Positions 1 through 46,025 of a stretch of 46,025 nt of DNA are shown piece by piece. The stretch's first letter is position 1; each line of letters opens with the position of its first letter. The DNA is taken from the NCBI GenBank assembly GCA_008632985.1, contig QPGO01000353.1, positions 1 to 46,025 on the forward strand. Direction: 5' to 3'. A program made the translations under genes and the position numbers. The DNA is from Psammoneis japonica. Taxonomy: Eukaryota. The notes below the pieces were generated by a model. It was not told where the DNA came from and searched no databases. It saw only the letters and a program-made list of their open reading frames with translations.

Positions 1-274
1 TGAAGGTCACTCCAAGCGAAGCCACCAAGAAACCACGTGTCGTCTGCTCTGATGGTCACTTGTTCCATGACTGCCTGGTCTTGAATGACAATCCATGCAT
101 CAAGGGTTTTCACACACGTTTTTGTCAATTCTTGAAGAGGGAACAAGCGGCCATGCGTGCTTCTGAATTCCAAGGACCCCAAGGTTCATTGCCACCTCAT
201 CAGGGAAATCCTGATGCTCCACCTGTTTCTGGTGATCAGTCTCTGGATTTTCAATCAGGCCATCGCAGCCAGTT

Positions 275-3200
275 TTGGATCTCCAACGCAGCCCATTTTC
301 TACCCACCAAGACAAGACCAATGTCAGCAGGATGACTGTGAAAGAGGGACTAACCGTCTCATCATTCACCACTGCACTGCCTCTTTCTTCGACCACTGAT
401 GTGGATTGCACTCATGCCCCTGACCCAAATGTATCTCCTGATGTCACCAAGCTGCCCAACCATGATCCTGCTCTCCCAAAGGTTACAGCAGATGCTGATC
501 CTGCTCTGGACTCTTTGGAACAGGGGAGGGATGATTCAGAAGAACAGGATTTTGCTGAATTCATTGATCTTGCCTGTGACAACATGGCCATTGAGGACGG
601 TTTTGCCACAGTGAACTCTGTCCAAGTCACTCCGATTGATCCACCCCACGATGTTGAATCGGATGCACCAGAATCACTCCGTGCTGCTTGTTCTGTCAAT
701 GCTGTCAAGTTTGCACCGAATGAATGCTGTGCTCAGCTGGACACCGGAGCCGATGTTGCCTGCACTGGAGACCGTGACCTGCTACATTGACACCAAGAAT
801 TTACTCCATTGAATCCATGCCCGCTTGCTGTCAACCCAGCTCTTGGACATGAGGCTGTCCCAGTTGGCTTTGGACACCTCCGTGTGCCTGCGGAGAACTC
901 AGACGGATGTGTTGAGGTTCGTGCTCATCACCACCAGCAGATCCAATCTGCCTCACTTGATGAGCAATTGCCACTCTGTCAGAACGGTGCCCTTCGGACA
1001 GATTGCAACATTGATTGCACTCTCAAGTTCCATGATCTTGGCACCTGCAAGTTTGTTGCACGGCATCACTTGCGCAAGAGTCAGGATGTCATCATTCATG
1101 GAAAATTGATCAACGGCAAGTGCTGTGCTCACCCACTCATCCTCCTGGAATCTCATTGCGAGTTAGATGCCTCAATTGAATGCCTCAAGACCAGCAACCC
1201 TTCTTTTGCTGATGAATGTGAAGGGGTCTCGGCATGCGTGATTGACACATGTTGTGATGCCAACATGATGCTCTTCATGTGGAAAGGAATTTGATCCCCC
1301 GAGCATGTCAAGATGTCCCCTTTGAAAAGTGTGCTGAGAAGAATGTCCCTGTGCAATCTCACAAGGCCGACACGGAACGCCTTTCATGGCATGAACGGCT
1401 TGGACATCCCAGTGATCACTGCCTCTGTCATGCTCATGAACATGTTGACAGTGTCCCGAAGTTTGCCCATGGTGCATCTCCCCTTGACACTTGTCCCACG
1501 TGTGTCCATGCTAAACAGACCAAGGAACTCGCTGGCCCCAATGCCACCTTAACTGCCACCCAACCACACCAAGGCCTCACAGTGGACTTTTCTTTCTCTG
1601 GCTTGTGCTCCAAGAATGCCGAGCACGCCAAAGATCATGTTGGGTTGAATGGTGAAACATGTTGGATCACTGTCTATGATCATGCAACAAAGTGTCTCCA
1701 TGGTGCAACTCGTGTTTCCAAAGCCACCCCTTTGAATTGGTTTTGCCACTTTCTGGAAGAGCATTTGCCAAAATGTCCTGACAAATGTGTTTTTGTGGAT
1801 CAAGGAGGTGAAGTGTATGACAACCCAGTGGTTCGGCAACTCTTCAAGGATGACTTTCATCATGTGGTTCGTCCTGCTGGAAAAGATGCTTCAAACCAGA
1901 GTGGTCCAGTTGAACAGAGTCATTTGACCATGCAAATGCCATTCGGGCAATGCTGACAGGTGCTGATCTACCCATCAAGTTTTGGCCACATCCTTTTCAT
2001 CATTTCATTCACATCAAGAATGCTGTGCCATCCCAAGGGCAAACTGCTGCCCCAACCACACTTGCTGCTGGTCGGAAGGATGATTTTTGTAACTTCCGCA
2101 CATTTGGTTGTCGTGTTTGGGTGCGCACTGTGAATCATCATCTGGCAAATTCCAGACCATTTCATGCAAGGGCACATTCTTGGGTTGTCTCCCAGACACC
2201 ACCAAGAACATCTGGTGGCATGACACTGAGACGTCACATGTCAAGCTTGCGAAGCACATCCGTTGTGATGAGGGGATGAATGATTTACCCCATGATTCTG
2301 TTCCCCTGAATGTGGTTCACTTGGAATGCACTCAGGCTGGTGCAGCTTTTCCTGCTGAAACTGAGGAAACCACCGTGGATGAGCTTCATTTCCATGGTGA
2401 CCCTTTTGGCAAGACTGTCACGCACACAATGAAAGGTCCATTTTCAGACTCTACTTTTGGAACATCATTGGCTGCAGATGACCTGTGCCAATGTGTCTCA
2501 TTCTTGGACATCAAACATGGTTCCCCTGCTGCCTGCCTCTTCTCATCTTTGAAGGCAATGCACAACAAGATCAAGGGTGCCTGTGTTGTTTTGATCAATG
2601 ACCAACCTGTCTTTGCTCCTGATGATGCTGTCAAGCATTTCCAGCAGTTGCGTGATTCTGGCAAGACTCATTTTGAAATTGAATTCATGCCAGAACGCTG
2701 CCTGGACTCTCATGGTCTACAACGTGCTCTCATGGAACATGACATTTTCTCCCCTGCCCCAGATCCTGAAGATGAGCATGTCCCGGAGCTGACACACGCT
2801 GACACACATGCAATTGCTGCAACGCGCTATCCCGACACTGATTTTGAAGCCATCGATGATGACGATGTTCCCCCACCTGTCTCTGTTGACTGTGACAATG
2901 GTGTCATCAACATCCATGCGATTTCCTCCCATGCCATTGCCCTGGAAGAACAAGCATTGGGTGCTTTCACTTGTCATCATCTCAAGCAGTTGGATGCATG
3001 GCCTGAATGGCATGCAGGTGAACTCAAACAACTTGAACAATTCCATGAGTTGGGAATGTTTGGTGCACCAATCAAATGTCCTGAGGATGCTGTTGCACTT
3101 CAACCACACTGGCAACTTGACCTCAAGCATGATGGCACACAACACTCCCGTCAGTGTTGCAATGGTTCTCCTCATGCAGCGTTTGTTCTCCATTGTCTTT

Positions 3201-4686
3201 GTTCAACATGCTCTTCCTGTGTTGAACAACCCATCCAGCAGATGTTCTTTGCTCTGGCAGCTACAATGAGCTGTCTGGTGTTTGGCGGTGATGCCCATGA
3301 TGCCTGTGCTCATTCCCCCCGACCGTTGCACCCAGTCTATGTCGCTGTTGATGATGGGTGTGCGACTTGGCACAAGTCTTGCTTTGGCAATGAGCTGGAC
3401 AGGAGCATGGTGCTCACGATGCAACATGCTCTCCAGGGACACCCAGAAGCCGGCGTGCTCTGGGAGAATCACATCAATGGCATCTTTTCTGATGTGACTC
3501 CATTGTTTTGGAACACTGCTCATGACAAATGCATCTGTTCTGCTGCATTTAGAGGACACAAGATTTTGCTCCTTTGACAGGTTGATGACTTTGCCATCGC
3601 ATGTCCCAAAGAATCCATTGCAAAGAAGATCTGCAATGAGATTGGCAAGGCACTTCAATTGGATTTGGAGCCTGCCCCCCCTTAAAGCACCTTGGCCTGC
3701 TTGAGGAATTCAATGGCATGGATGTTCATCAGCATGATGACTTGATTGGTGTTGCTGTTCACAGCCATGTTGAATGAGTTTGCCTCTCACACGGTTGGTC
3801 TGCACCAAGTGATGAGGAACCACTTGGTGACTTCAAGGTGACCCCCATTCCAGTGGATTCCATTTGTGAGCTTTGCACTGCCATTGGGCCTGCTGAAGGT
3901 ACGCTGGAGCATGCAGAGCTGCAACAAGCTGCTGGTTTTGGCTGCCATGCTCTCCTTGGTGAGCCATTGTGCGCCTGTGTCATCTGTCAACTCGACATTG
4001 GCTATGCTGTCACCACCCTCTCCAAGTTCTCCACATGCCCTGCAGCAGTGCATTGTGATGCACTCAAGGGTGTCTGCAAGCATCTTCGTCACACCAAGCA
4101 TTGGGAATTGAGCTGCAAGAAGACCCATTGTGACTCGAGTCTCCCTGCCTGCCTGCATGAATGCCTGACTCCTGATCCGACACTTCCGTCATTCCCTGCT
4201 CCCAAACATGATCACCAGCTTGTTGCCTTCCTTCATGCCACACATGGCAATGATCTTTGTAACCATCGTTCCATGATGGGATGTGCTTGCATGTTGGCTG
4301 GTGCTGCCATCTGCTTGAGTTGCAAGACACAGTCGGTGACTGCTGCAAGCTCCACAGAAGCGGAGTTCTGTGCTGCTGGCACTGCTGCCAAGCATGTTCT
4401 TTGCCTTTGTCATGTCTTGCATGACCTGGGCTTCTCTCAAATGAAGCCCACTCCCTTGCATGTTGACAACAAATTGGCAATCAAGATCATCAACCACTCC
4501 ATCCCAACCAAGTGCTCGCGCCACATTGAAGCTCAGTTCTTTGCGATCCAAGAATGGAAGGAGGCAGGCAAGATTGTCACCAGACATGTCCCTGGCATTG
4601 TCAGCCCCAGCAATGACCTCACCAAGGCTCTTGGTTGGGCACTCCATGCTTGCCACGCTCGACGTATGATGGGACACTGCTGTTGA
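275..4686 (+). pseudogene. pol: copia pol pseudogene (protease, integrase, RT, RNase H) with frameshifts and stops
   Basis: Protease AQLDTGAD (~730-755); integrase WHERLGHPS...CPTC, VDFSF, VFVDQGGE, ASNQSGPVE; RT ALQGHPEAG and *QVDDFAIAC (~3575-3605); RNase H SSTEAEF...VDN...RHIEAQFFAIQEW...DLTKALG, ending 4686. Confidence 0.9.
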
Positions 4687-4823
4687 TGTTTTTTTTTTCG
4701 TGGTGGCCTCCCCACTGTGCATTGCCCCCCCTCGTTTGTTGCGTGCTGGGCTTGGACACTTGTGGTGTCCTTTGGTCTCTCTGTTTGCATCATCCCTGTT
4801 CTTTGGTTTGATCTGCTGCAGCA

Positions 4824-5265
4824 TGCATGCAGACAAAAGGTTGTTTTTGTCATGCCCTTTGTGACATTTAAAGGCTGTAACACGTCGCCGTGATGCATTG
4901 ACTCTCATCAGCAGCTGTGTGTTGCACTCCTCCCCATGTGTCACGCGTCCATGCGGCTCTTTACTAACGTGCACTGACACTGCACGGTTTTGGCGGAACA
5001 GTGTGGGCACGCACGAAGGAACGAGCAGAACTGCACAGAGTTTTACGCGTTCGACAGTGATCAACGTTGCTGCAGACAACTCCCACTCAGGGTTTCGAAC
5101 CCCTGGCCTCCTGCCCAATGGTTGCGATGAACCACTCTGCTGTGAATTCACAACGCAGTGTGCATGCAGACAAAAGGTTGTTTTTGTCACGCCCTTTGTG
5201 ACATTTAAAGGCTGTAACACGTCGCTGTGATACATTGGCTCTTGTCAGCAGCTGTGTGTTGCACT
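4824..5265. repeat. ~105-bp direct repeat pair (4824-4928 and 5161-5265) in the copia 3' UTR
   Basis: TGCATGCAGACAAAAGGTTGTTTTTGTCA...GCTGTGTGTTGCACT occurs twice; most differences are at CA/TG/CG/TA positions. Confidence 0.9.
5082..5150 (-). ncRNA. degenerate tRNA-like / Pol III A-box + B-box sequence
   Basis: Minus strand reads CAGCAGAGTGGTT (A-box-like)...GGCCAGGGGTTCGAAACCCTG (B-box within a CAGGG/CCCTG stem). Acceptor and anticodon arms are poor. Confidence 0.4.
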
Positions 5266-5519
5266 GCACCATCTTCTGTTTTGAGATGTCACAGATCAGG
5301 GGAGGGTGTCAGCCCATCTGTCATGCAATGGACAGACTGCACATGGATGATGACCGGACTGTTTAGACAGACGAGCAGATCTCTGCCTCTCACTTTCTCA
5401 TCTGCTGGCCAGTGCTTGTGTTGTCACAGTCCTGGTGCTTGGGGAGTCTTTCATGCCTCTGTCATCATTGACCTTTGGCACTCTGTCATTGGAGTTGGCG
5501 AGTGACCTCATTTGCAATT

Positions 5520-6100
5520 CCCTCATTCCGCACTCCTGGAACAACACGGGAAAAGTGCTGCACATGGACAACTGTGGTGCTTTACAAGCATCTTGCTGTT
5601 TGAGGCACTTTGGGAAAGGGGAATGTTTGCAGTCAGCCCAACTTGCACTGCGACCTGAGAAACCAAGCAATTGTGCAGACACGAGCATTCCCTTCCAGAA
5701 GTGTGGCAAGAGTGCATTGCATCTTGTTGGAGGGAAGGGCTGGATGTGCCGTGTGGTTCGAAAGATCAAAGTTGGAGCAATTCAAGTTTCCATTTGGTTG
5801 GACAACAAATTTGTGACTGTTCTTTCTACAGCTTGCATCAAAGCTGCTGATGAGGGCACAACTGTCTTGCGTTGGGTGAGAACCGAAAGAGCACGAGTTT
5901 GGATTCCGGCGCTGATGCCAATTTTGCAATGCGCGCCAAACATGGGTGGCATGGATTGCCTTGACAAGGCAAATGCCCTCGCAAACATTCAGATTCGGTG
6001 CTGCCAAAAGTGGTGTCACAGGCAAGTGTTTTTCTTTTGTGTCTCTTTGGTTGGCAAGCGGAAAATGCAGTGGAGTGGCATTCGTTCATCATGACACACA
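5520..6100 (+). pseudogene. piggyBac-like DDD transposase, C-terminal fragment
   Basis: GKVLHMDN, WLDNKFVTVLST and QCAPNMGGMDCLDK match the piggyBac motifs W.DnK.V..LST and Yn..MGGVD..D. Confidence 0.75.
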
Positions 6101-6289
6101 TCACTCACCTGTGCCACCATTTGACTCTCTGAGATAAACACTCAAACAAAAAACTGATGAGCAGCTGTTGCAGTGACATGAAAAGACGTGACAGTCGACC
6201 ATGGTTGAGATGCCGTGCTTGGTGTCTTTACGAAAATCAGTTGTGCACCACAACATTCAGCACAAGCAAGGGCACAGCGTCACACAGCA

Positions 6290-6560
6290 TTCAAAAGGTG
6301 AACAACGGACAGCAGGTTTCTCAGAGGGTAAAGCGCGAACAGCACAAACAAATGATTCTCGTTGACTTCAAGAGGAACAACAACAGATTTTTGAGTCGGT
6401 TTTTGCCAAATCTCTTTTTTGGGACGCACCAGTGTCACATTTTTGCACCGTGTGTCAACAGAGGGTACAAAGACATTTCTAAAATGTCACTGGATGGCTC
6501 TGGGCATTCAGCGGTTGTTGAGTTACAACACCAAGAGATGATCGGTGTGGTGTTGTGCCT
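6290..6560 (+). repeat. fragment homologous to 36900-37170 (3' part of the putative hAT-like family)
   Basis: QHKQMILVDFKRNNNRFLSRFLPNLFFG...QEMIGV aligns with QHKQTTLIDFRRNNSRFSSCLLPNVFLG...PEMVGV. Confidence 0.65.
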
Positions 6561-7197
6561 TTGTGTGCAGAAGAAAAAGAAAACAAAGCCAAAGTGGGAA
6601 ACACTTTTTTCGTCTGGGCATGCCTTGAACAAGGGCACAAGTCTACGACAAATTTATGTGCAAATGTGCCAAAGAGAAACCCCCAGATCTTGGGACATGT
6701 TTGAGACACGGCTGGGCACAAGGAGTGGTCTGTCTTGGTCAGTGCATGGTGCATGCCTGACGTCACAGAGCCAAAAATTAGCCTCTTCGAAAAAATTGAT
6801 GGTTGTTGGCCCTGTGCATGACACAATTTTAGGCCATGCATGCTTTGGCCTCAAAAACAACATGCCCCAGACACCACACCCCCGAGTCGACACACGAGAC
6901 AAACCAGAAGTGGCGTTTTTGATGCAACAAAAGTGTGTGTGGCTGCACCTTTTCCAAGAACAACCCACAACCTTGTCATGCATGAGGCATTTGCTGTGTT
7001 TGGGTCACTTTGCATGCGGTTCTTGTGTCTCATCACGACACAGCATTTTTCCTGAACATGCTCTCAATCAATCCACTGCAGACACTCATGCAGTGAAGTT
7101 GATTGTGCACAAGTCATGCACAAGTTTAATGTCATGATCAACACAGGTGCAAGTGTCGTGCCGCAGCAAGCAGCAGCAGCACACTGGGAATGAATGG

Positions 7198-7243
7198 ATG
7201 CATGCATGCGCGCGCGCGCATGCGTGTGTGTGTGCGTGCATGC
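7198..7243. repeat. 46-bp strictly alternating purine/pyrimidine tract
   Basis: ATGCATGCATGCGCGCGCGCGCATGCGTGTGTGTGTGCGTGCATGC, built only of TG/CA/CG steps at the YR positions. Confidence 0.85.
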
Positions 7244-7399
7244 CAGAGGTGCACAAATTGTCTGTTGTCATTTGTGTGTGCTCATTTGCGCATTTGTGCA
7301 CCTCTGGGGTGGGCCGCAGGGATGGAATGCTGCAACCCTACATTCAGTGCAGGAGGATGCACCACAGTGTCCGGCAGTGAGGTGGAAAAATCCATCAAC

Positions 7400-8480
7400 A
7401 AACAGACACAATGTGCGAAAAATGTGCACACTTCGGCACACAAAAAAATGCCCTCACCATGATGATGACACAACTGCCACTCTGCAGAGTGGCAAAGGCA
7501 GTCAAGCATGCACAACCCAGTGCTAAAAAAGACTTCACTGAGATGTGTGTGAACACTGTGTTTGTCAGTGGCATGAATGGCAAAGCAGTTTTCCCCCTTC
7601 CCAGTTGTGTGCAAAAATGGCTCTCGTGCATCTGGATCAGTGCCTGCTTGCACAGAGAACACATGTGGATTGTCTTTGCAAAAACAAGCAATTGGCAACC
7701 ACTCCATGCTTGGTTTTCCTGCACTTCTTGGTTGGGGTCAAATGAGCATTGATGCCACCTGCGGGCAATCCATCCACACCAAGGACAGATGCAAAAGTGT
7801 TTGGATGAGCAGCATCTGGTGGTGAAGGCATGCAAGCCACACTGCAGTCATTGGCAATTGGCCACTCCACAAAAAACTCACAAAAGCTCTTTTCACACTC
7901 TTTGTGACTGCCATTGCAACCATTGCACACTCTCCATGATGTGCTCCAGCCCCAGGTGGGAGCTCGCAGCACTGATGCATGACACAATTGTTTTTCATCA
8001 TCCATCACATGTTTGGCACCTGCATTTCTGTGTGTGATCTTCCAAAAATTTGTTCCAGACTTGCTGTTTTGCAAAACCCCAGATGTCTCATTTGATGAAT
8101 TCATTGGAACAACAATGTGCCAGGTGCATTCTTCAATGTCTGAAGAGCGCACCTGGCTGAGCAAAAAATGATGTGCTTCAATCATGGATGAGTTTGTGTG
8201 TTTGCAAAATTGCCTCATTTTTTGTTGGCGATCATTGTCATTTTTGTCATTTGACAATTTCACCACAGAGCCTGCATGCAGAACTCTGCAGGCCCACTGT
8301 CACACAGATTCCCACCTGCATGTCTGGAATGCATCCCATGTGTCGATGACAACCATGCCAAAGACTGAGAAAGTCACACCGTTGGACAAGTCCAGGGTGC
8401 CCAACTTCCATTTGATCTGCAGGTTGTCTTGCCTGTTCCCATTGTGCTGGTCAATCTTTCCACAAGTGTCACATTGTTTC
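7400..8480 (-). pseudogene. putative hAT-like transposase fragment
   Basis: TCRWESV*QWACRVL resembles the hAT TRWNS...RLL block. It continues NDNDRQQKMRQF...SSDIEECT, homologous to 28141-28450 (+) and ~36110-36200 (+). Confidence 0.5.
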
Positions 8481-8499
8481 TTTGCTGCTTTGGGTTGGG

Positions 8500-8776
8500 G
8501 TGTCAAGCTCCTGTTGCTCAGAGTCAGCATTTGTGCTGACTTCCTCAACCTGGTGCCAAGGAAGGTGGATCATAAGACACAACGGACAAGCCATGCGTTG
8601 GCAACTTACAATGGAAAACTTCAGTCCCGAAACAACACACATCAAGGGCAAGGCGAACGTCATCACGAGAGATGCGATCAGCTGACTCACTGTGAAGAAA
8701 ATTGAATCCTGCAACAATGTCCCACCGTTAAAATGGGATAAAGACATTTGCCTCCAAATTGTTGGACGCAACACAT
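8500..8776 (+). mobile_element. Ty3/gypsy host copy, RNase H C-terminal fragment (left part of the interrupted element)
   Basis: AMRWQLTMENFSPETTHIKGKANVITRDAIS (gypsy RW.L...F...I.YIKGK.N..ADAISR). The sequence resumes at 14169 exactly as in the uninterrupted sister copy. Confidence 0.8.
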
Positions 8777-9144
8777 TGCACTGTGCTCAAAGAATGAGTG
8801 CAAACGAAAGTAGAGTCAAGCACGAAAAGTGAAAATTATGAGATTAAATTTTACTTTGTGATTGTTTGGTTTCTCTGAATGAGTTCTCAATGGCCTGAAG
8901 CTTCTGCACTGCTTCCACAGACAAAAGGCCTTTCGGAGAATGCATTCATGACAACAGATTGTCCGAGTGCTGTTGCCATTGACACGTAAGATGTCAACAT
9001 CGTCAATCAATCGCACTTGCAATTTTCAACTTCCGATCAACTCTGTGTGATCGTTCTGTCCTTTGTGCGCATCCACGACTGTGGTGCGATTGACACACAA
9101 ATGACACATGCTTGTGAACATGTTTGTGACAGTCACATGCTGCA
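8777..9144 (-). repeat. gypsy 3' LTR (368 bp)
   Basis: Direct repeat of 13807-14168 and inverted repeat of 15087-15454; TG...CA termini; preceded by the PPT. Confidence 0.9.
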
Positions 9145-9922
9145 CTTGCCTCCCTAATTGCACATTGGGGTTGTTCATCAAGTTGAGCCATTCAACGGAC
9201 ATTGACATTGTCAATGATGTCTCCACATTGACTGCATTGTGCCATCAGCAGTGACTGTTGTTGTTTTACACAGGCCAGCACAGGGCTGTTTCAATTTCCA
9301 AATGTCTTTCAAGAGTTTCATGATTTGTCTCACACTCCATGCATGTGCACATGTGCAACATTGTGTCCAGCATTCTCTCTGACATCGTTTTGTTCATGTG
9401 GACACAAGGACCAATTGTCCTGCTGCTCTTTCATGGTGTGGATTGCACACAGCATTTTGCCCAGCGCTCGATGTACGCTCTTGTTTGTGGTGTTCACTTG
9501 CTTGTGGATTTTGTGCAGTTTGGCAGGCTTGCTTCATGTGCCATGTTGCTCTGCTGCACTGCCGCGTTTCACAAGCAATTAACGACGGTCAAGGATGTTT
9601 TCTGACCATTTCGTCTTGACAATCCTGTGATGGTTGTGAGCTCCTTTATGGATTTTTTGTCACTTCGACCATCTTTTGTTGTTTGGACCATCTTTTGTTG
9701 GATTTTAAATCATTGTTTGGACGTTTCTTTTTTGACATGCCGGCGTTATTTTGTCATTCCGAAGGCACTGCTTTCATGCACTGAGTGGACAAATGTCCAT
9801 TTTTCTTTTATTTTTCTGAATCTTTGGCACATCTCGTGTGTCAACATGATGTGTGTTTTTATGTCTTGCCTTGTACATTGAACATTACAATCTGCAGGTG
9901 TTGAGATTGTCTTTCATGCCAG

Positions 9923-10638
9923 GAGAGCACGGGAAAATTGAACGGCTGTTGTTCTTCAGACATTTGTGAAAAGAAGTTGTCAAACACATTTCAAAGGGCT
10001 CATGTAGAATTTGTGTGTGGGCAATGATCACGATCACTAAAAAAGTTTGCGTTGGTGATTTTGCCAAATGACATTGGTGAGAACGGCTTGACGTTGAGTC
10101 GTGTGGTAAAAAAAACAGCTTGAACAGCTCAACTTTGCGTGGTCCGGTAAAAATGCTGTTCGCACAGCATCAGCGATTGCTCTCTGATGCTACAAAAAAA
10201 CCACCATGGCCTGTTGAGTCCTTCTTTCTTCCCTTGCCGGCAGGGCTTTGCATGATTGGATGCTTGGTGGAGGATGTCGAAAGCTCAAAGACAAATGTCA
10301 GCATGGAAAACGTCCGTCGGTTCTCATGCTGAAACCGGAGAGGGTTTTGAATTGCCTCAACGGCAAAAGTTTAATGTCTCCGTTACCGCACGGTAAAAAA
10401 GAATGCCATTTTTTTACTGTCCGGTAAAAAAAAACTGCTCGAACGGCACTCGTTTTGGTGATCCGGCAAAAAAGAATGGTGCTGGCACGTCCGACGTCCG
10501 AGCAAAAGCTCACGCAAATTTTTGCAATGGCCGACCGTTGAACATGTGTGTCCTTCCCTTCTATGTTGCATGCTGTTCAACGGAAAACAAGGTGCATTGC
10601 GCACCATCTGGGCGGACACCCTGTTTTCCCGTGGTCTC
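9923..10638. mobile_element. 716-bp non-autonomous TIR element (MITE) in the gypsy 3' UTR
   Basis: 15-bp TIR GAGAGCACGGGAAAA / rc GAGACCACGGGAAAA (1 mismatch); 3-bp TSD CAG (9920-9922, 10639-10641). The sister copy shows the empty site GCCAGTGTGAAG (rc near 14305-14320). Confidence 0.85.
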
Positions 10639-10779
10639 CAGTGTGAAGTGGACACGTGCAATGCATGCCAATCTGTCACTGTTTTTTCCTAACCGTCCTT
10701 TAACAAGGCGATTTTATCCTCATGACATGAGCATTTTTCGATCTCGCTCGCCTCCACGAAAAGTGTTAGTGTGACATGT

Positions 10780-13760: not shown

Positions 13761-13806
13761 AATTTTCATTTTCCATGTTTTTACCTTCTGTGGTGTGTGT
13801 GCACAA

Positions 13807-14168
13807 TGCACCATGCTCGAAGAACGAGCACAAACGAAAGTAGAATCAAGTGTGAAAAGTGAAAATTGTGAGATTAAATTTTGCTCTGTGATTTTTTGGT
13901 TTCTCCGAACGAGTTCTCAATGGCCTGAAGCTTCTGCACTGCTTCTGCAGACAAAAGGCCTTTTGGAGAATTTGTTCGTGACAACAGATTGTCCGAGTGC
14001 AATTGCTGTTGACACGCAAGATGTCAACACCCGATCGCACTTGCAATTTTCGACTTCCCATCAACTCTGTGTGATCGTTCTGTCCTTTGCACGCATCCAT
14101 GACTGTGGTGTGATTGACATGCAAACAACACATGCTTGTAAACATGCACACAACAGTCGCATGCTGCA
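13807..14168 (-). repeat. gypsy 5' LTR (362 bp)
   Basis: Direct repeat of 8777-9144, directly upstream of gag on minus. Confidence 0.9.
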
Positions 14169-26788: not shown

Positions 26789-26861
26789 GAAAAAGGGAGG
26801 GACTCGAACCCCCGGCCTCGTCCTACGATCGGCGAAGCTCTGCCACTGAGCTTGCCTTTTC
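26789..26861 (-). ncRNA. tRNA-like cloverleaf, copy 2
   Basis: Identical to 21243-21315. Confidence 0.75.
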
Positions 26862-28138
26862 ACTGACACGTTGGGGACCAATCAGAGCATCTAATTTATT
26901 CTGAGTGCTGGTGGTTTGCCAGCGCCCAGAGGTCCTGTCCTGCTGGCACGTGGGCTCGAGCAGGTGTGCTTGCAGACGCGGGACCATGAACGTCGCCTTG
27001 TCTTCTACATTGGGTTCGCGGCTTCAAGGTGTGATCAGCACCTCTGCTCCCTTGGGGGTTGCCATGGCTTTGCACGTGTTCCAAGTGTTTTGCTCAGAGC
27101 TTTCCAATGTTTGCTCAATCGAAGGCGTCACTGCCACGCCCTTCCCTGAGTGGGACAGGGCCACCCGTTCCCAACTGCTGGGGTTCCAGTTAGGGTGCAC
27201 TGCCCAGGGTTCACCCACACCCTTGAACAGATTGGAGTGCCAATGGCATTCTTTGATGCAACTCATTGCTGCCTGCCAAGGCTGCAGCAGCAGCTGCAAT
27301 TTGATGCCAAGAGAGCAACATGTGCCATGTTGTTGTGGCTGGTGTCCCCCCAGTTGCTGCCAGAGGTGCGCGGCTGGCACCACCCAAGACCCGCCATGAG
27401 AAATGGATGGCCAAAGGTGCCATTTGGAAGGCAAGTGCGCAGACCTCCTCAACCACCACTTCGCCAATGGAGCCACTCCAGTGCCCTCTGCCACACTGCC
27501 CAAGCACATTGTCGACCTTGGCAACGTGGCACCCAGGGTTTTCTTGGCCTTGGTGAACCATGAGATGGGATGCAGGGTTGCTTGCATGCCATCAGCGCAC
27601 ATTTGTGACCCCGTTGCCATCTCGCCATGGGATGGATGTGTGTTTCATTCCCAGGGGTGTGTGTTGCCAGGCAACTTCATCAACATTTTGGAATTGCCCA
27701 GTGCCCCATTCAACCTGGCTGGGCCCCAAGCAGCACCCGCTGCAGCCAACACCCAGCTGATGAGAATGACCTCATTCCACCGCAGACAGATGGCACAAAC
27801 ATTCAGCACCTGATCCAGGTGCCCCACGCATGTGTTCACCTGGTGTCCTCTGGAGATCTCACGCCATTGCAGGCATGGCGGGAACCAGGAGGCATGATCC
27901 AGAATGATGGGCATGCTCTGGCAACCTGGGCCCCCCAGTTGATTGGCTTTGAGCTGGGAGTCACCTCAAATCTGTTGAAAGTCAAAGCTGTCCCATCATG
28001 CTCGTGCATGCAGGCATGGCACATCTGATTCCCACTGCCAACTCTGGTGAAATGGATCTTTTCATCCCCCACAACACATGTTGGTTGAGCACATTGCAGT
28101 TGCCTTTTCATCAGATTAAATTGTTCAGAAACGGATGT

Positions 28139-28500
28139 CACATTTCCAGCTTTGGACGGGTTCCAGTCCCAGCAGGTGGGACTCCGTGTGACATTGGGCC
28201 CGTAGAATTCTACGTGCGAGCTCTGCAGTAAATTTGTGCTGCAATGAAAACACAAATGATCGCCAACAGAAAAAGAGGCAATTTTACGAACGCATCTCCT
28301 CCTTCATGCTTGACGCACATCGTTGACAGTTTGCCCGGGTACATTCTACAGACATTAAAGAATGTACCCAGCGTATTTTCACTCTCACAAATGTTGAAAA
28401 TAGAAAGCCTTTGGCTTCGCAAAACAGGGAGTAGAAACAATTTCGTAGAATGTCACACGTAGAAATGCTGGTGCGCGACATGCGACGCGATCCGAAAAAC
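28139..28500 (+). pseudogene. putative hAT-like transposase fragment
   Basis: Frame from 28141: SPSRWDSV*HWARRILRASSAVNL...NDRQQKKRQFYERISSF, homologous to 7640-8330 (minus). Confidence 0.55.
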
Positions 28501-34500: not shown

Positions 34501-35354
34501 CTGCCACAGGGACTTGTTCCAAGTCCTGAACAGCAGTGAAGTCTTGACCGGCCATGCAGGCACGCGTCTGCGCATTGCATCCACAATGCGCAAGACAAGC
34601 GGTGAAGGCTGTGGCAGCGGCCATGGTGTGTCAGCAGTTATTTGCATGTCGACGCGTGAGCATCCACTTGTGTGAGTGGAGAAAAGTGAGAAAAATGTGT
34701 GGTTCTTGTGCCGATTTGGTGGTTTCTACTTGGCGAACCTGCGAGCAGGCGGTGTTGCTCCTGAGCAACAATTTCCATCAGACATGTGTCCACATGCACA
34801 GTGTCTGAGCAGTTTGACAATGTATTTTGATTGGTCAAATGCACATGATCAAATGACAGACCTCAACACACAAATCATTGTGTTGTCTTCATCATGAATG
34901 TTTGTGTGTCTTAGCCAACATGTTCTGTCCACATGACCAAACATTCGGTCCACTGACGTCATGTTCAATGGATCACAGCTCTGGTCTCCAAGTGCATGTC
35001 GTTCATGTCCATGAACATTGATGCACACAAAGGACTCAGCGATTGTGCAAGCAACCATGGGACCAACATGGCGCTTGCGGCAAAAATCGATCAATCGCAA
35101 CAATGTCATCATGCCATTCGTGATGCCCATTCCAGGCGATGAACATCACAGTGCATTGGCTCTGACAAAGTGAGTGAACACTGCCACAATGGCCAAGAAT
35201 TGGGTGCAAGACAAGACAGAGTGTTGAACAGCATCAACAGGTTCTAGAATTGTGAGATGTTGCGCCACTGGGACCACTGAACAAGCGACAGTGGACCAAC
35301 AGCCAACAGTGCATAAACTGCCTACATTCATGACAGCATGTCAGCATTCATTCA
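28501..35354 (-). mobile_element. near-complete Ty1/copia (CoDi-like) LTR retrotransposon
   Basis: 5' LTR begins TGAA at 35354; 3' LTR begins TGAA at 28684 after PPT GAGGGGGAC and is cut off at ~28501; gag-pol lies between. Confidence 0.92.
28838..34624 (-). pseudogene. pol: copia gag-pol pseudogene
   Basis: gag from MAAATAF (34624); protease DLDSHADACAVG; integrase FYSDQMF, LVSDG, STPHSPWQNLAEASIRELK; RT FDIK...RKARLMAGGH, ADVQNACL, ALHGLKSSGA; RNase H FVDADHAG...RSHTG...STFGSEF...FCDNEAV...NLADVLTK. Confidence 0.92.
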
Positions 35355-35369: not shown

Positions 35370-37319
35370 CAGTGCAGTGGTGCGAGGTCCCACCTGGCAG
35401 AGCTCGAACACGTCTTTGGGTCAAAACTCAACGGACACCCCGCTTTCAACAAAAAGTTGTTGAAAGTTAGATTTTTCAACAACAATCTGTTGAAAGTTGT
35501 TCTTTCAACAAAAAACATGTTAAAACTTGTGCTTTCAACAAAAAATCTGTTTGTGTTGTCACCGATGCCGTTCAACATCGAATTGTTTGATGCTCTGATG
35601 ATGCAGCAAAAGACAGCTCCTGAGGGCTTTCATTCTGTAGACTGCAGCACATCCAACACCTTTTGTCAACACCTTCACACCTGCCACAAGACATGTTCAA
35701 AGCCACAAGTGTCAACAAGTGCACCGCAGATGGAACCAGTTCGACCTTGTTTTTTTGGGTTGCCGAGTGGGTTGCTCTCATGAGTGACAAGGCAAAATGA
35801 AATGAAGATAAAATTCACAATTGAATTGTTGCTTTGCCTCTCATTCCATTTTCCAACATGCTCCATGTGTCTGCAGATGGGCGGCAGTGATTTGCGATTT
35901 GGAAAATGCGCGCACAGAAGGCTGCCAACATGGTTTTGACTCATGTCGCATTCAAGTGGGCCTCGGAAGAAATTGCCAAAAATGCCAACACCTTGTCACT
36001 TTAATGTGACATGCATTTTTATGGAGTCCTCGCAGATGCCACAAGGTGATGGACCATTGCTGTGCTGACGTTAGAAGAAAATGTGAGTCCGATGCTGACA
36101 AGAAGCGCTCCAGCCCTCTAGCTGGGTGGGACTCCATGTGACATTGGGCCCACAGAATTCCACGTGTTAGCTCCGTAGCACAAGATTTTAATTGATGGGT
36201 GTGTTTGTCTTCCACATCAAATAAACGGCCAAGTTTGTGGTGCAATTGAGCCTCTTGCCACTCGACGTTTTTGCAAATGCGCCTGCCCTGCACGATTCCC
36301 AAGACATTGTAGAATGGTGCTGCAACAAAAAATGTCAAAAGTTGTTGGACAGATTGCTCAAAGGTCCTTCCAGGCAGTGATCTGCTGGTGCCATCCATCT
36401 CACCCAGCGATTCCCCCAGTGGCATGTTGTCAGCGCCATCTGCAGTTCTGAGTGAGAATCCTGGTGGCAAACTGTCAGCGGCTTGATTCTCTCAGCCTGG
36501 CAATCCACCTGCAGCTCCAAGTCTGAGTCCCAGCGTGCTGCGTCTTTGACAGTTTCATCCTTGGAGCCAAGCACCAAGCCATGAGCAACTCCATTAGCCA
36601 CACTGAGCAAATCCCTTTCTTGACACCTTCACAATGGAACTTCTCTGCAATGCCATCTGAAGTGCCAAGTGTGGCCAACGGCAATTGCCCATCAAAAACC
36701 TCTGTCACATGAGCCACATGATGGCCCATCTCACACACCTTCACACTTTTGCCATTTGTTGATTGTGCTTGTGTGGCCGATTGACCATGGTGAAAAGGAA
36801 ATTTTCCCTGCTTGCAGCTTTTCCAGACATCAGTTGCAACCCAAAGTTTCAGCCACACCAAGGGCATCATGCATCACGTCATGCAAAATGCAAGTGGTGA
36901 ATGTCAGAAGCAGGTGTCATGGGGGGGGCAAAGCACACAACAACACAAACAGACAACTCTCATTGATTTCAGGAGAAACAACAGCAGATTTTCAAGTTGT
37001 CTCTTGCCAAATGTCTTTCTTGGAATGCACTTGCACCACTTTTTCACACTGCAGATCAACACAGAGCATGCAAAGTCATTCACAAAATGCTGCTGGACAG
37101 CTCTGGGTGAGCAGTGGCTGTTGAGATGCAAGCATCCAGAGATGGTTGGTGTGTGGTTCTGCCATTCCTTGTGATGTCTAGAGTGGATGGGTTGAAAATT
37201 GTTGAAAGTTACGTCTTTCAATGCAAAATTTGTTGAAAGTTGCAACTTTTGACAAAAAGGTGTTGAAAGTTGTGACTTTCAACAAAAAGTTGTTGAAAGT
37301 TGTTTGGTGACAAACACTG
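35370..37319 (+). mobile_element. putative hAT-like DNA transposon derivative with subterminal repeat arrays
   Basis: Arrays of ~29-30-bp palindromic units TTTCAAC(A)n..GTTGAAAGTT at 35443-35550 and 37190-37300; right end ...CAAACACTG; internal GWDSM*HWAHRI (~36125) and TMVKRKFS (~36785, like hAT S..VER.FS). No clean TSD found. Confidence 0.55.
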
Positions 37320-38983: not shown

Positions 38984-41900
38984 ATGGCAGCTGCTCCTCT
39001 GAACCCCATCAAAACTGCACTTGAGTGGATTGGTTTTGTGGTGCCTGCTCAGCAGGCATCAATCATGACCAATTTGTCATCTTTTGATGATGTTGTTGAT
39101 CTCAAGGAGAGCAACACTGATTCCATTGCATCCTTGTGTGCAAGAAGGATGGCAGCCAAAAGGCACCTCTGTTTTGGATTAGCCCGCATCCGTCATCTCA
39201 AGGCACTGATCCATTGGGTCCAAGACTTCTGGTGTGTTGGCGAGCATCCAACCCTTGTGGATTTGGATCAAGCATCTTTTCATGATGCACTGCAAGTGGC
39301 TCTCAGTCGGGCCAAGATTTGTGCCCAGCAGAAAGAGCAGACCAATTCTCTGGCTTGGGAGGCATCTCCTGGACTCTTGGAAAACAAGAAACAGTGGCCT
39401 GAGTGGAGCACTGCCCTCAAGAACTTGCAGGGTGCCATGCCAGGCATGAACAATGTGCCACTGATTCATGTGATTCGAGACAACAACAACCCAGACCCTG
39501 AGGGACATGCAACTTTTGCACAGAAGTGCATTGCTTGTGCTCCTCTGCAGGGTCCAGTTTTCAAAGCTGATGTTCATGCTGTTAATCAGTTGATTGTCTC
39601 CTTCAAGAAAGGAATGGCCAGCAAGCAGTGGATCAAGGAGGATTGTCTCCTCCAAAATGGTGGTGTCGACTGTCGCAATCTGGAGGACCATTGCCAGGGC
39701 AAGGGCAACACCACCCATTGCATCTCAGAAGCCAAGCGTTTGGAAGCTGCTTTCTTCCATCACAACAAACATTCCATGACTTTCAAGGTGTTCATCAACA
39801 AACTCCAAGAAATGTTCAACACTTTTGAGCAGAATGATGAACCCAAGACTGATGCTCAGAAGTTGCGCATCTTGTTGGAGAAGACACAGCACCAACAACT
39901 TCAGGCAACCGTTGAGACCCTCAAGGCACAAAACGAGTTTGGAGGAGGCATCACGTTCATGACCGTGGCTGACCATCTTGCTGCTGAGGTTGCAACCCTG
40001 CCAGAGATGACAGTGCACCATCATGCGATTTCATCAGTTGCCTCTGGTGAAGGCGGTGATCCCAGCATCCACAACCCTGATGGCTCCATTGACACTGGGT
40101 TCCACATGAGTTCTAACAACTTGAGTGCAGAGGACAAGAAAAATGTGACAGACAAGCGCATGCACCTGGGTCTCAAGAAGAAACCTGGGTGGCTTGAGAA
40201 GAAGAACCAGAAGCTGTGGTCACAGCTGACTCAAGCAAACCGTAAAATTGCAGCTCTCAGTGCCAATCCAACCGGCTCTGGTTCTGGTGAGGACAACGAT
40301 GGGGCTGACAGTCAGGACCAAGGTGATGGTGGAGGAAACAATGCTTGGAATGTGTTTGGGGGATGCAGTGAACAACAGGACAGGCACGGTGGTGGTCGCA
40401 ACTGACTGGCATGCTGGGCCCTGCTCTCTAGTCTCATTCAGCATGTCTCATGGACAGTGCAATGGGGCGGGGGGCCAGCATTGCCAACGTGCTTGCCGAT
40501 GCATTGGGGAGATCACCACTTCACCCATGCATGTCTCAGTGCATGCACAAGACAACGAGACACCCACACACATGGGAACGACCAGGCAAAGCATGGACGA
40601 TTAGAATTGGATTCGCATGCTGACACCACTGTTTTTGGTTGGAATTTTTCCCTCTTGGGTTGTTCTGGACGCAACTGCAATGCATTGCCCCATGCCGACA
40701 AGTGCGAAGCGATTGAGAGTGTGCCTGTTGTTTCTGTGGCTACGGTGTGGACATCACCAACGATGGGTGCAATGTGCATCTTGGTCTTTCACGTGGGACT
40801 GTGGATGGCTGATTCCATGAATCACTCCCTTGTGAACCCCAACCAAGTGTGGCATTTCGGTGTCATGGTTCAAGATGACCCTTGCCCCACATCACCACTT
40901 TACATCCTCACAGAGGATGATGGGTTCATGCCACCACTTGAAGTCATGGGAACCAGTGTCATTGCGCGGACTCGGACTCCTGCAGAATGGGAACTCCAGG
41001 AGTGCCCACACATCCAGAAGACCTCCCAATTGCCATGGGATCCACATGACATCCAGTTCAAACAAGCAGGAACTTGACGCTCTGTGGAGGAGGAAATGGA
41101 ATTGATGTGGTCAGTTGCAAATGTCCAGACCAGCCCTGGGCCATGCATTTGGCAATGATCCTACACACAGAAACTCTCAAGACGGGGACTGTGGTGGAAG
41201 AAGATTCATTTGTGGTGCAGACCAAGTTCAATCAAGGTTGACAGTGGTGGTTCAAGTCAAAGTGGATTTCAAAAGCATTCTGCCATCAAGACCATCAGGG
41301 ACAAGCCCGAAGATTGCACCTTAGCCAAAGACTTTCATGTCAAAGGAGAGGGCACAGCTTGGTTGCTGCTGCAGACTTGAGTAAATGCTGGGGCATTGGT
41401 TTGAAGCAAGTGGCAACCACACTCAAGCAGACCACTCAGAAATTAGTCAGGTTCATGCCAATGCATTTGGCCAGGCATTGCAAGGTGGATCGGATGCTCA
41501 CCAAGAGCCAAGACTGTGAGGCGAGTGGGTGACCAATGTGATGGACGGCAAGGTGGTGTCATTGGAGGGCAACAAGTGTGCATGGAACCAGAGAGGCACA
41601 ATCAGAATCCAGTGGAAGGTGTGATCTGTGAGATTTGGCGCAAGTGGTTCCACTGCATGGTCAAGAAGCAGGTTCCACCATGTCTTTGGGATTGTGGGGC
41701 AGTTTGGTGTTGCAAGACAATTTCACGTACATTCGTTCATGCTCACCATCTAGATGCCAAAGCACCTCTAGAAGAAATGCTTGGCGAGATGATTGACATC
41801 TCTGAGCACCTAGATTTTGGTTTCTACAACTGGGCATGGTGTCAGGAGAATGCAGGTCTCAGAGACCAGAAACTTGGTGGGTGGCTCGGTGTGTCCCATC

Positions 41901-44613
41901 GCACTGGAAGCCTCATGTCACATTGCATCTTGACACAGACAGGTCATGTCATGTCAAGAACGTCTGTGCAACAAGTCACCAACCTTGAGTCTACAACGCA
42001 AGCTGATCAAGACAGGTTCAACACATTTGATGGGGAGGTCCAATGCCGGCCAAGGGAACAAGACTTCCCAAAAGATGAAGAATGGCGGATCAGTCCCGAA
42101 GACTGGAAGGACTGCCTTGGACATGATGATGAATTCCTCGACAAGTGCAATCATGTCATTAGCACAGAAGAGGTGTTGAATGATGATGATGATAAAAAAG
42201 ATGAGGAAGCCTCACTGGAGGCTGCAGATTGGGGCCATTTGAACATGGAGGTCACTTTCCCATGAGACGACAATGGCCCCGCATTTGCACGCGTTACAAA
42301 GAGGCTGCAGGATGCCAATGGCATTCCAATTGGGACTGCCAATGACAACCCCATTCTAGATGCACAAATGCATGAGGTAGAGCACCCTGATGGGCATGCT
42401 GCCGCATTGTCCCCTGACTCCATTGCCATGAACATGTTTGCACAGATCGACAAGGATGGGAATTGGCACGTCTCATTCGATGATGCAGTTGACTTTTGGA
42501 CAAATGGGGATGTGCCTGAGACCACCTTCTTTGAGACTGAGCAAGGCAATGACAGAAAACGCAAAACAACCAAGGGATGGGAGCTTTTTTTCAGTGGAAG
42601 GATGGCAGCACAACTTGGGTGGATTTGAAGGACTTGAAGGAAAGCTTCCCTGTCCAAGTTGCTGAGTTTGCCATCCAACACAAGATCTCCAAAGAAGCAG
42701 CATTTGGTTCCACATGTGTTGCAAACTCGCAAGCAATCCATGGCAAAAGTGAAGTCAAAGCATTGGTTGAGGACCTGTGAATTTGGAATCAGGAAGCCAA
42801 GGAGTGTCAAGGAGGCTTTAGAACTTGACTGCATGAATGGGGACACCTTGTGGTGGGATTCCATCTGCAAGGAGATGAAGAACATTCAAGTTGTGTTTGA
42901 AAAGTTTGACAGAGAAGAAAGGGATGTCACCCCAGGCTGCCAAGAGATCAAGTGTCACTTTATCTTTGATGTCAAACTTGGGGAGAACTTTCGTTGCATG
43001 GCAAGGATGGTGGCAGGTGGTCACATGACTGAGACCCCAGCCACCATTGCTTGTTCTTCCGTTGTCTCCAGAGATTTGGCAAGGATTGCTCTGACTCCTG
43101 CTGTGCTCAATGACTTGCAAGTGTTCACCTGTGACATCCAGAATGCCTGCCTCACTGCTCCATGCAGAGAAAGGATCTAGACCCAAAAGCTGGTCGAGAA
43201 TTTGGCAAGGAACAAGGTTGCATCATGCTTGCAGTCAGAGCTCTCTACAGATTAAAGAGTTCAGGAGTGGCATTCAGGGCTTTCCCAGCAGAGACACTTT
43301 ACAATCTAGGGTGCAAACTGAGTGAGGCTGATCCAGATGCATGGATGAGACCTGCGGTCAATCTGATGGGCTTGAATGCTGCGAGTGTGTGTTGGTTTAC
43401 ATCGATGATTTACTGTTGATTAGCCACGAACCGATGAAGACCATGGATGGAATCAAGCTCATGTTCAAGCTCAAGGATGACAAAGCAGCCAAACCAGACT
43501 CCTGCCTTGGTGCTGCATTGTCTGAGATGGATGCAGCTGACAGTGCCACGTGTTGGACTGTGTTTGCCAAGAAGTGCTGCAAGGCTGCTGTCCAGAATGT
43601 CGAAGACAAACTGGCCAAGGAGGGAAAGCGGTTGCCCGGAAAGGCTTGCATGCCTTTGAGCAGCGGCTGCAAACCAGAGTTGGACACTTCCAGAGAATTG
43701 GATGCAGCAGGGCTCAATCACTGCCAAGAGCTGGTTGGCACACTCATTTGGGCTGTGAAACTTGGCAGGGTTGATGTTCATCTGGAAGCATTCTTGACAT
43801 CTGCTCTCCTTGCATTGCCATGGATTGGCCATCTGGAACAGGTGCTGCACATGTTCACATGTCTCAAACAGGTTCCAAAATGGCAAATGGCCTTTGATCC
43901 AACCCATCTGGTGATTGATGACCATCAATTCGTTAAGTGCAACTGGTGTGATTTCCATTGGGATGCAAAGGAGGCTGTCCCACCAAATGCGCCGCCACCT
44001 TGATGCAAATGTGTGTCCATGCATTGTTTTGCCGATGCCAACCATGCCACAAATGTTGCAGACCGTCACAGCCATGCAGGCATTTTGATCATCCAACCCA
44101 TCCAGTGATTGATGGCCGTTGATTCATCAAGTGTGACTGGTGTGATTTCCATCGGGATGCAAAGGAGGCTGGAGAATTGGGGCGCAGCAGGGCTCAATCA
44201 CTGCCAAGAGCTGGTTGGCAACACTCATTTGGGCTGTGGAACTTGGCAGGGTTGATGTTCATCTGGAAGCATTTTTGATGTCTGCTCACCTCACGTTGCC
44301 ATGGATTGGCCATCTGGAACAGGTGCTGCACATGTTCGTGTGTCTCAAACAGGTTCCAAAATGGCAAATGGCCTTTGATCCAACCCATCTGGTGATTGAC
44401 GACCGTCAATTTGTCATGTGCAACTGGTGTGATTTCCATTGGGATGCAAAGGAGGGTGTCCCACCAAATGCGCCACCTCCTTGAGGTAAATGTGTGTCCA
44501 TGCATTGTTTTGCCAATGCCAACCATGCCAGAAATGTTGCGGACTGTCGCAGCCATGCAGGCACTTTGATCTTCTTGTGTTGGGCTCCAATTGTCTGGTG
44601 TTCGAAGCGTCAG
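38984..44613 (+). mobile_element. Ty1/copia (CoDi-like) gag-pol pseudogene, internally deleted and duplicated, interrupted in RNase H
   Basis: gag ORF MAAAPLNP... to 40405; protease RLELDSHADT; integrase EPERHNQNPVEGVI; RT FDVKLGENFRCMARMVAGGH, CDIQNACL, ALYRLKSSG, LVYIDDLL; RNase H CFADANHA...APIVWCSKRQ, broken at 44613. Confidence 0.92.
43693..44571 (+). repeat. local duplications: 43693-44090 repeated at 44172-44571; 43897-43977 repeated at 44091-44170
   Basis: GAGAATTGG...TTTGATC twice; ATCCAACCCATC...AAAGGAGG three times. Confidence 0.9.
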
Positions 44614-46025
44614 TGAACAAATGCTGATGTGCTGTCACGAACACAGGCAGTTTATGTGCTGTTGGCAATTGGTCCACTGTCGCTTGTTCAGTGGTCCCAG
44701 TGGCACAACATCTCACAATTCTAGAAACTGTTGATGCTGTTCAACACTCTGTCTTGTCTTGTGCCCAATTCTCAGCTGTCATGGCAGCATTTGTTCACTT
44801 TGTCAGAGCCAATGTGCTGTGATGTTTATGCCTGGATTTTTGTGGCAAGCGCCATGTTGGTCCCATGGTTGCTCACGTAATTGCTGAGTCCTTCGCATGT
44901 GTCAATGTTCATGGATGTGAACAATGTGCTCTTGGAGACCAGAGCTGTGATCCGTTGGACATGACGTTAGTGGACAGAATGTTTGATCATGTGGATGGAA
45001 TGTGTTGGCTAAGAAACACACACATTCGTGATGAAGACAACACAACGATTTATGTGTTGAGGTCTGTTGCTTGATCACATGCATTTGATTAATCAAAACA
45101 CAAAACATGTTGTCAAACTGCTTAGACACTGCACATGTGGATGCATGTCTGTTGGAAATTATTGCTCAAGTGTAACCTCGCCTGCTCGCAAGTTGGCCAA
45201 GTAGAAACCACCAAATCAACATGAGAACCACACGTTTTTCTCATTTTTCTCCACTCACACAAGTGGATGCTCACGCGTCGAAACGCAATTGACTGCTGAC
45301 ACACCATGACCGCTGCGACAGCCTTTGCTGCTTGTCTTGCACATTGTGGATGCAATGCACAGACGCGTGCCTGCACAGCCGGTCAAGGCTTTGCCACCAT
45401 TCAGGACTTGGGACAGGTCCCTTTGGCAGAAATTGCTGCCATGGCCAAGTCCGCTTCCCAAACCTGGCGAATCGAAAGTTCAAGGTGCTGCGCGCATGGA
45501 TTGACTGCCGCAGGGCCCGGAACCAACAGCCGACTGCTGCTCTCCTTGCTGGTGATGTCATTGGGACATGGATGGCACATCTCACAGAATTGGAACAATT
45601 CAAGTCAGTGGACTCGGATGACGAATCGGCTGCCAAGACGGCCGTGGAACTCAAGAATCTGCATGACTGGCCCACCTTCCAAGAGTCACTGGCAACTGAA
45701 CTGCACCACCACCACAGTGCCGTTGCTGGTCACCCTATCTGCCCAGTTGGGGAGCATGAAGACGTCACCGCCAAAAATGTGGCTGCTGCTTGCTCCACCA
45801 TTGACGAAGACCTCATTGCTCGCCACCGACTTGCAGGAGCTCAGCACACCAGGACAGGCAAACACCTGCATGATCCTCTTGAAGAAGTTGGTGAAGGGGG
45901 GCGGATGGGCTTTTGTCAAACGCTTCCATTGCAATCGCGATGGTCGTGCTGCTTCTTTGCACTAAGAGGCAGGCAGAAGGATCGGCTGCTGCACACCCAA
46001 AAGAACCGTGCCCATGCACAGATTG
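44614..46025 (+). mobile_element. copia element of the same family as 28501-35354: 5' LTR, leader and start of gag; runs off the window
   Basis: TGAACAAATGCTG... at 44614 is the reverse complement of the LTRs ending at 28684 and 35354; gag MTAATAFAACLAHCGCNAQTRAC (45306) matches MAAATAFTACLAHCGCNAQTRAC. Confidence 0.92.

Follow-up and report, generated by a model that had tools for sequence, protein, structure and literature searches.

The closest described counterpart to the locus analyzed here is the TpA hypermutation of integrated viral DNA in the marine alga Bigelowiella natans, as reported in a recent preprint (Mettrop et al., bioRxiv 10.64898/2026.01.13.699255, 2026). Across 15 mutation-accumulation lines of that alga, 302 new single-nucleotide mutations of the nuclear genome were recorded. 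Two integrated viral regions held 231 of them, and 230 of these 231 were A>G or T>C changes, every one of them at TpA. Mutation in these regions ran at about 1000 times the background rate and appeared in some lines only. The preprint also describes 124 clusters that are poor in TpA and rich in CpA and TpG, with reverse transcriptase and DDE domains enriched among them, and proposes an ADAT2-like DNA adenine deaminase; no other species is named in it. The locus of the present study is contig QPGO01000353.1 of Psammoneis japonica, of which positions 1 to 46,025 were analyzed as one stretch (hereafter the window; 46,025 bases, of which 23573-23920 form a single gap of 348 N). The window is rich in repeats, with nested copia, piggyBac, and probably gypsy remnants, and TpA is strongly depleted throughout. 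It would be best filed as a much more extreme example of the kind recently described in that one species, with a putative mechanism and a putative restriction to repeats. An earlier reading made from the letters of the window alone (hereafter the sequence-only reading) had stated that no named system carries this signature, a statement that is out of date since the preprint measured the signature in B. natans. Full-text literature searches, with most subscription journals outside their coverage, returned no second report of TpA>TpG/CpA hypermutation, and an older one may exist.

The window resembles the B. natans case in having A>G and T>C changes at TpA that yield TpG or CpA depending on the strand, in affecting foreign or mobile DNA, and in forming domains poor in TpA and rich in CpA and TpG. 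It is unlike that case in presenting the end state in place of new mutations, the raised rate having its counterpart here only in an excess of TA differences between young duplicates. The depletion is also deeper, with an observed/expected ratio (O/E) for TpA of 0.13 over at least 46 kb compared to 0.45 in the giant-virus region of the preprint. Where giant-virus or virophage inserts are the targets there, the window has copia, piggyBac, and probably gypsy elements, and CpG decay accompanies the loss of TpA.

Four other known processes share some of these traits. Repeat-induced point mutation (RIP) of ascomycetes likewise ruins repeated or mobile DNA in place through dinucleotide-specific transitions on both strands. 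However, RIP turns CpA and TpG into TpA and leaves an excess of TpA, a pattern not found in the window, and it makes stop codons, which the TpA process cannot. The decay of methylated CpG (5mCpG, with 5-methylcytosine) also gives TpG and CpA, acts with strand symmetry on a dinucleotide that is palindromic, and occurs here as well. The change of TAY codons to TGY or CAY is nevertheless impossible for CpG decay, and in the window the TpA changes are faster and occur beside intact CpGs. Deaminase-driven hypermutation of mobile elements is known from ADAR, acting on RNA, and APOBEC3, acting on single-stranded complementary DNA (cDNA). Both leave their marks on one strand and before integration, whereas the marks in the window are found on both strands, arose after integration, and include a DNA transposon. 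Lastly, WA>WG changes by Pol eta are a signature of somatic hypermutation; the window shares with it the A>G change at A after T but differs in that ApA is unaffected.

Over the whole window, O/E was 0.13 for TpA, 1.74 for CpA, 1.69 for TpG, and 0.45 for CpG, while the other 12 dinucleotides ranged from 0.90 to 1.17, with neither ApA (1.16) nor TpC (1.02) depleted. The scarcity of TA and the abundance of TG and CA claimed by the sequence-only reading are therefore confirmed far beyond chance. CpG decay accompanies them and also appears as a loss of conserved Arg (kept in 54 of 131 conserved columns of the copia alignment described below). Split into 46 one-kb bins, TpA O/E lay between 0.00 and 0.40 in all of them. 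Cut-offs given in the preprint (bioRxiv 10.64898/2026.01.13.699255) are a TpA value of at most 0.43 and a CpA+TpG value of at least 1.52, the formula of the latter being as interpreted here; the TpA cut-off placed 46 of 46 bins within the depleted class, and both cut-offs together 41 of 46. Only two small patches came near a normal TpA content. The domain and these patches, none of which has a strand, are as follows:

1-46025, no strand: TpA-depleted, CpA/TpG-enriched domain (TpA O/E 0.13; at most 0.40 in 46 of 46 one-kb bins).
26301-26900, no strand: least depleted patch (TpA O/E 0.52-0.97 in 300-bp windows).
28201-28700, no strand: patch of weaker depletion, overlying a short repeat of very high abundance (TpA O/E 0.49-0.56, CpG O/E 0.75-1.33).

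As a baseline, an intact copia relative on metagenome contig L001 was used, which has 44% protein identity and a similar G+C content. This single locus was found by a metagenome scan with the altered copia protein and served for composition only. Its O/E values were 0.79, 0.94, 1.16, and 0.99 for TpA, CpG, TpG, and CpA, respectively. Measured against it, the window lacks 1,933 TpA and 1,365 CpG and carries a surplus of 3,575 TpG and CpA, so that deficit and surplus are roughly balanced. As more TpA than CpG is missing, 5mCpG decay is not the sole source of the TpG and CpA excess.

The direction of the change was read from three copies of one copia family (A, B, and C) and from a piggyBac remnant. 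Among the relatives of the copia family, a protein of the diatom Fragilaria crotonensis showed 49% identity, and the best other relative 58%. The four elements are:

28491-35354, minus strand: copia copy A, near full length (tblastn, residues 1-1428 of the relatives; 194-bp long terminal repeats (LTRs) at 28491-28684 and 35161-35354; TpA O/E 0.17).
40598-44619, plus strand: copia copy B (tblastn; TpA O/E 0.12).
15650-18417, plus strand: copia copy C, of a CoDi-like family, truncated (tblastn with relatives; TpA O/E 0.03).
5354-6091, plus strand: remnant of a piggyBac transposase, covering its C-terminal part (57 relatives with E<=0.001; TpA O/E 0.06).

Columns with at least 70% agreement among 60 database relatives of the copia polyprotein were compared with the three copies. 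Conserved Tyr was kept in only 6 of 73 columns and had become Cys in 30, His in 26, and another residue in 11, while residues other than Tyr and Arg were kept in 925 of 1,379 (Fisher P = 1e-24). A single transition to Cys or His accounts for 56 of the 67 lost Tyr. By copy, 3 of 30 Tyr were kept in copy A (14 Cys, 13 His), 3 of 24 in copy B (12 Cys, 5 His, 4 other), and 0 of 19 in copy C (4 Cys, 8 His, 7 other); the Arg losses mentioned above are the share of CpG decay. No Tyr-poor relatives were present in the protein sets (Tyr minimum 1.1%, median 3.6%). At codon position 2, A>G occurred in 30 of 73 codons with a preceding T. With A, C, or G in that place, the counts were 4 of 116, 0 of 56, and 1 of 220, respectively, or 5 of 392 in all (P = 4e-22). 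At codon position 1, T>C occurred in 26 of 73 codons in which A follows, whereas the counts were 1 of 65 with a following T and 0 of 67 with a following G, or 1 of 132 in all (P = 1e-12). The pattern of A:T>G:C transitions only, with TpG or CpA as products according to strand, was thus found in the copia columns. It was ancestral TA that was lost, and the change from A:T to G:C kept strictly to TpA, whichever the strand.

In the piggyBac open reading frame (ORF) 5354-6091, the Tyr-dominant columns 117, 193, and 221 (Tyr in 24 of 42, 52 of 53, and 29 of 49 relatives, respectively) were all Cys, and one Phe/Tyr column was His. PF13843 was found in all seven scanned relatives of this frame. The four strings quoted by the sequence-only reading were all located, namely GNACL at 17239-17253 (plus strand), ALHGLKSSG at 30059-30085 (minus), GHCHIKL at 11593-11613 (minus), and WCSKRQ at 44596-44613 (plus). 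Its claim that conserved Tyr is replaced by Cys or His holds for copia and piggyBac. The 5'-T preference of A>G on both strands, on which that reading had made its process depend, is likewise evident from the counts above.

Both strands were affected to a similar extent. The window contains 4,920 TpG and 4,800 CpA, in keeping with the 30 Cys and 26 His of the copia columns. Runs of neighboring TG or CA changes on the same strand were not found (neighbor test z = -2.6, slightly alternating), and the effect of flanking bases on strand choice was weak (P = 0.002, uncorrected and exploratory). The flanks do differ in how much TA is left: ATAT is absent compared to 623 ATGT and ACAT, although 376 TA persist in the window. 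By the same ratio, which includes background TG and CA and is indicative only, 1.1% remain for ATAC/GTAT and ATAG/CTAT and about 7% for TTAA and CTAA/TTAG. TA with a 5' A or a 3' T was the most completely removed.

Repeats within the window place these changes after integration. LTRs of one element are identical at the time of integration, while the LTR pair of copy A is now 85% identical. Of its 29 mismatches, 24 lie in TG<->CA (8 doublets), TA<->TG/CA (5), or CG<->TG/CA (3), and other mismatches make up about 3%. A three-way LTR alignment contains places such as TGTA / CATG / CACA, from which an ancestral TATA can be deduced. Over 20 repeat pairs, TG<->CA doublets numbered 124, while each of the seven remaining double-transition classes had 1-18. 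Under homogeneous decay only about 41 TG<->CA doublets would be expected, so rates vary between sites. Of the 738 mismatches counted across repeat pairs of the window, 573 are transitions, the G:C>A:T share coming from CpG decay. Tyr columns common to two copia copies had the same outcome in 12 cases and a different one in 21. Together, the divergence of the LTRs, the piggyBac hit, and the differing outcomes between copies indicate a process that took place in double-stranded DNA after its integration and ran its own course in each copy.

The relation to CpG decay is clearest in a duplicated block, the two copies of which are:

20224-21365, plus strand: duplicated block, copy 1, with a 928-bp and a 218-bp part (98.5% identity of the former to 27211-28138, 97.7% of the latter to 26694-26911).
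26694-28138, plus strand: duplicated block, copy 2, with the parts in permuted order (repeat-pair alignment).

No TpA-type differences separate the two 928-bp parts, whose 14 differences include 8 at CpG. Between the 218-bp parts, 5 of 5 differences are TA in one copy and TG or CA in the other, with TA retained in either copy, and none of about 16 CpGs (counted by eye) differs. The TpA process therefore ran both before and after the duplication. Among all pairs of at least 90% identity, 13 of 21 TA sites differ compared to 28 of 79 CpG sites. TpA change was thus faster than CpG decay and did not need CpG decay nearby.

Read support came from a public run stored as contigs (X1), which contains 54% of the sampled words of 24001-34000. 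Eight listed X1 contig pieces with a word depth of 50-67 differed from the window at 41 of 6,226 bases, so that the bases of the window are supported by reads. The summed X1 depth over copia copy A of about 4,000-14,000 points to many related copies and is not a copy number. Among 40 listed of 428 variant places, the window had CA or TG where other copies had TA in 13 and CG in 11, and CG where others had TG in 3, with 13 places of other kinds; in none of these 40 did the window have TA where other copies had TG or CA. None of the runs listed was an RNA run carrying the window sequence.

The contexts of A>G, the LTRs, the doublets, and the outcomes per copy together support the proposal of the sequence-only reading that a second process besides 5mCpG decay acted here, at the level of double-stranded DNA and specifically at TpA. 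With a probability of roughly 0.6, we read the window as the product of a TpA hypermutation that acts regionally on silenced mobile DNA and is probably enzymatic, of the same kind as in B. natans and here at saturation. After the elements had integrated, A:T>G:C transitions restricted to TpA would have brought the domain near saturation, with either strand attacked with equal chance and each TA becoming TG or CA. The most likely candidate chemistry, already among the candidates of the sequence-only reading, would be one in which adenine at 5'-TpA of DNA is deaminated to hypoxanthine. Its role may have been genome defense through the scrambling of coding sequence.

Several points weigh against this reading. 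For the chemistry, A>G after T is indistinguishable by symmetry from T>C before A. X1 may be the source data of the window, in which case it provides read support and not independent proof. The depletion spans the whole window, including stretches without a recognized element, and TpA and CpG O/E correlate across the bins (r = 0.65), as would fit ageing under a genome-wide bias. Within the window there was neither a recognizable single-copy gene nor an edge of the depleted domain, so that a confinement to repeats is putative here, with the other copies that keep TA and the two less depleted patches as its only indirect hints.

The last of these points lead to an untargeted TpA bias of the whole genome, under which TA would be kept by selection only in working genes and the window would be old neutral DNA near equilibrium. 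The depletion of all 46 bins and of the stretches between elements fits such a bias, as does the correlation of TpA with CpG, expected if both follow age, and the weaker depletion (0.49-0.56) of the abundant, presumably young repeat at 28201-28700. However, the B. natans process as measured was limited to two regions and absent from the remaining genome (bioRxiv 10.64898/2026.01.13.699255). By rough inference, the 5 of 5 TpA differences in the 97.7% pair, taken with the about 3% of other LTR mismatches, also imply that TpA mutates one to two orders of magnitude faster than the background; extended to a whole genome, such a rate would impose a heavy load. Of the 40 listed places, 13 still read TA in other X1 copies, which counts against the bias too, though these copies may just be younger. 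On balance, a genome-wide bias appears unlikely.

A second alternative retains the targeting and replaces the deaminase with a TET/JBP-type dioxygenase, which would oxidize or hypermodify thymine at TpA to 5-hydroxymethyluracil (hmU) or a similar base, with T>C then following from mispairing or faulty repair. The signature is symmetric, and T>C before A (26/73) fits it as well as A>G after T (30/73) fits deamination. In dinoflagellates, hmU is said to favor TpA and TpC, yet TpC was not lost from the window. Furthermore, hmU pairs mainly with A, and a near-saturated state would therefore need a further step. On the other side, T-oxidizing TET2 mutants show more substitutions at T as well as at A, and the authors of that work discuss hmU placed at TpA in either strand (PMC11804724). 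We regard thymine oxidation as improbable.

Patch synthesis by a Pol eta-like enzyme with WA>WG bias during T:G repair in methylated DNA, a candidate of the sequence-only reading, fared considerably worse. Decay of CpG and TpA does co-occur and is correlated across bins. The WA motif was nevertheless not found, as A>G followed A in 4 of 116 cases compared to 30 of 73 after T and ApA is not depleted (O/E 1.16), and the TpA changes of the 218-bp pair lie in a CpG-rich stretch with unchanged CpGs. Such repair is thus a very improbable source of the TpA changes.

ADAR-like A-to-I editing of transposon RNA, fixed through reverse transcription, would agree with the usual preference for U before the edited A, as the preprint gives it (bioRxiv 10.64898/2026.01.13.699255), but is hardly credible here given equal strands (30 Cys, 26 His), an affected DNA transposon (piggyBac), LTRs of copy A that diverged after integration, and equally depleted stretches between elements. 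The LTR divergence, the differing copy outcomes, and piggyBac together exclude editing of RNA or cDNA before integration as the main source. An artefact of sequencing, base-calling, or assembly, which the extreme skew and the 348-N gap might suggest, can scarcely be entertained since X1 contigs share the bases and the changes are codon-consistent, copy-specific, and found alongside ordinary CpG decay.

Further elements of the window were identified with varying support:

about 800-5244, plus strand: "copia#1", a copia-type element from a different lineage (match to the GAG-pre-integrase domain over 1258-1953, E = 2e-7; TpA O/E 0.10, CpG O/E 0.36).
11593-11613, minus strand: the GHCHIKL motif in a decayed reverse-transcriptase-like frame (string located; the gypsy label is that of the sequence-only reading).
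18784-20823, plus strand: a 680-codon open frame, possibly gypsy (weak integrase zinc-binding match to PF17921, E = 0.0021, below the curated cut-off; TpA O/E 0.02).

The frame at 18784-20823 had no relatives among longer database proteins, proteins near its own length not having been searched. A Pfam scan of 143 stop-to-stop frames of the window gave 6 matches, all of them weak, because the proteins of the window are too altered.

The stretches 27805-28438 and 36047-36680 correspond to one or more very abundant short repeats, with a summed X1 word depth of 58,765 and 36,017, respectively, compared to about 50-67 for single-placed pieces, and X1 contigs link 36159/36174 to 28255/28242. As the patch at 28201-28700 is weakly depleted in TpA and not poor in CpG, it may be a young and possibly active small element. 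X1 contigs also connect 28459/28467 straight to 35354, with about 30 other letters between them, which indicates other copies of the surrounding repeat that lack copia copy A or carry a different short filler. This fits an insertion of copia copy A into an older repeat.

In copy 2 of the duplicated block, the 218-bp part is followed by 305 bp related to 26180-26484 and then by the 928-bp part, and this permuted order suggests a tandem or circular-junction origin. The 218-bp duplicate (21148-21365 and 26694-26911) is CpG-rich and, judged by eye, looks like a tRNA in reverse complement, with D-arm-like and T-arm-like strings. ARAGORN and Rfam scans gave no tRNA or Rfam match, including for this duplicate. 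It may be the head of a tRNA-derived short interspersed nuclear element or a primer-binding relic.

The replacement of TA by TG or CA makes no in-frame stop and destroys TAA and TAG, and dead elements consequently retain long open frames. Over six frames, 306 TAA and 198 TAG were counted compared to about 1,450-1,490 expected for each (about 5-7 times rarer), along with 2,255 TGA. TGA is the only common stop in the window. There are 186 stop-to-stop frames of at least 90 codons on both strands, and copia copy A holds an 828-codon open frame at 29870-32353, although nearly all of its Tyr are lost. Gene finders would over-call in such regions and gene counts would be inflated. In the preprint, 78 of 96 genes in the TpA-poor clusters of B. 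natans are without annotation (bioRxiv 10.64898/2026.01.13.699255), and the persistence of open frames may lie behind such unannotated "genes".

The mechanism is narrowed by these results to one that acts on integrated DNA, on both strands, outside the WA motif, and independently of CpG decay. If the enzyme is a natural TpA-preferring DNA adenine deaminase, it would be of interest for base editing. The window makes visible the long-term outcome of the process, with near-total loss of TA over nested transposons, wholesale change of Tyr to Cys or His, and persisting open frames. The copia relatives are of the diatom CoDi type, and it is a tentative possibility that the lineage is one other than B. 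natans and that a TpA DNA-editing defense, a "reverse RIP", is widespread in microbial eukaryotes. Such a defense would saturate islands of transposons that are 46 kb long or more. It would outpace the decay of methylated cytosine and be independent of it, work best at A/T-flanked sites, in line with the absence of ATAT, and let long open frames persist in dead elements, by which gene finders are misled. If the reading as TpA hypermutation of mobile DNA is true, the window would represent a eukaryotic genome defense, or at least a regional mutator, with an unprecedented chemistry, A:T>G:C at TpA in duplex DNA.

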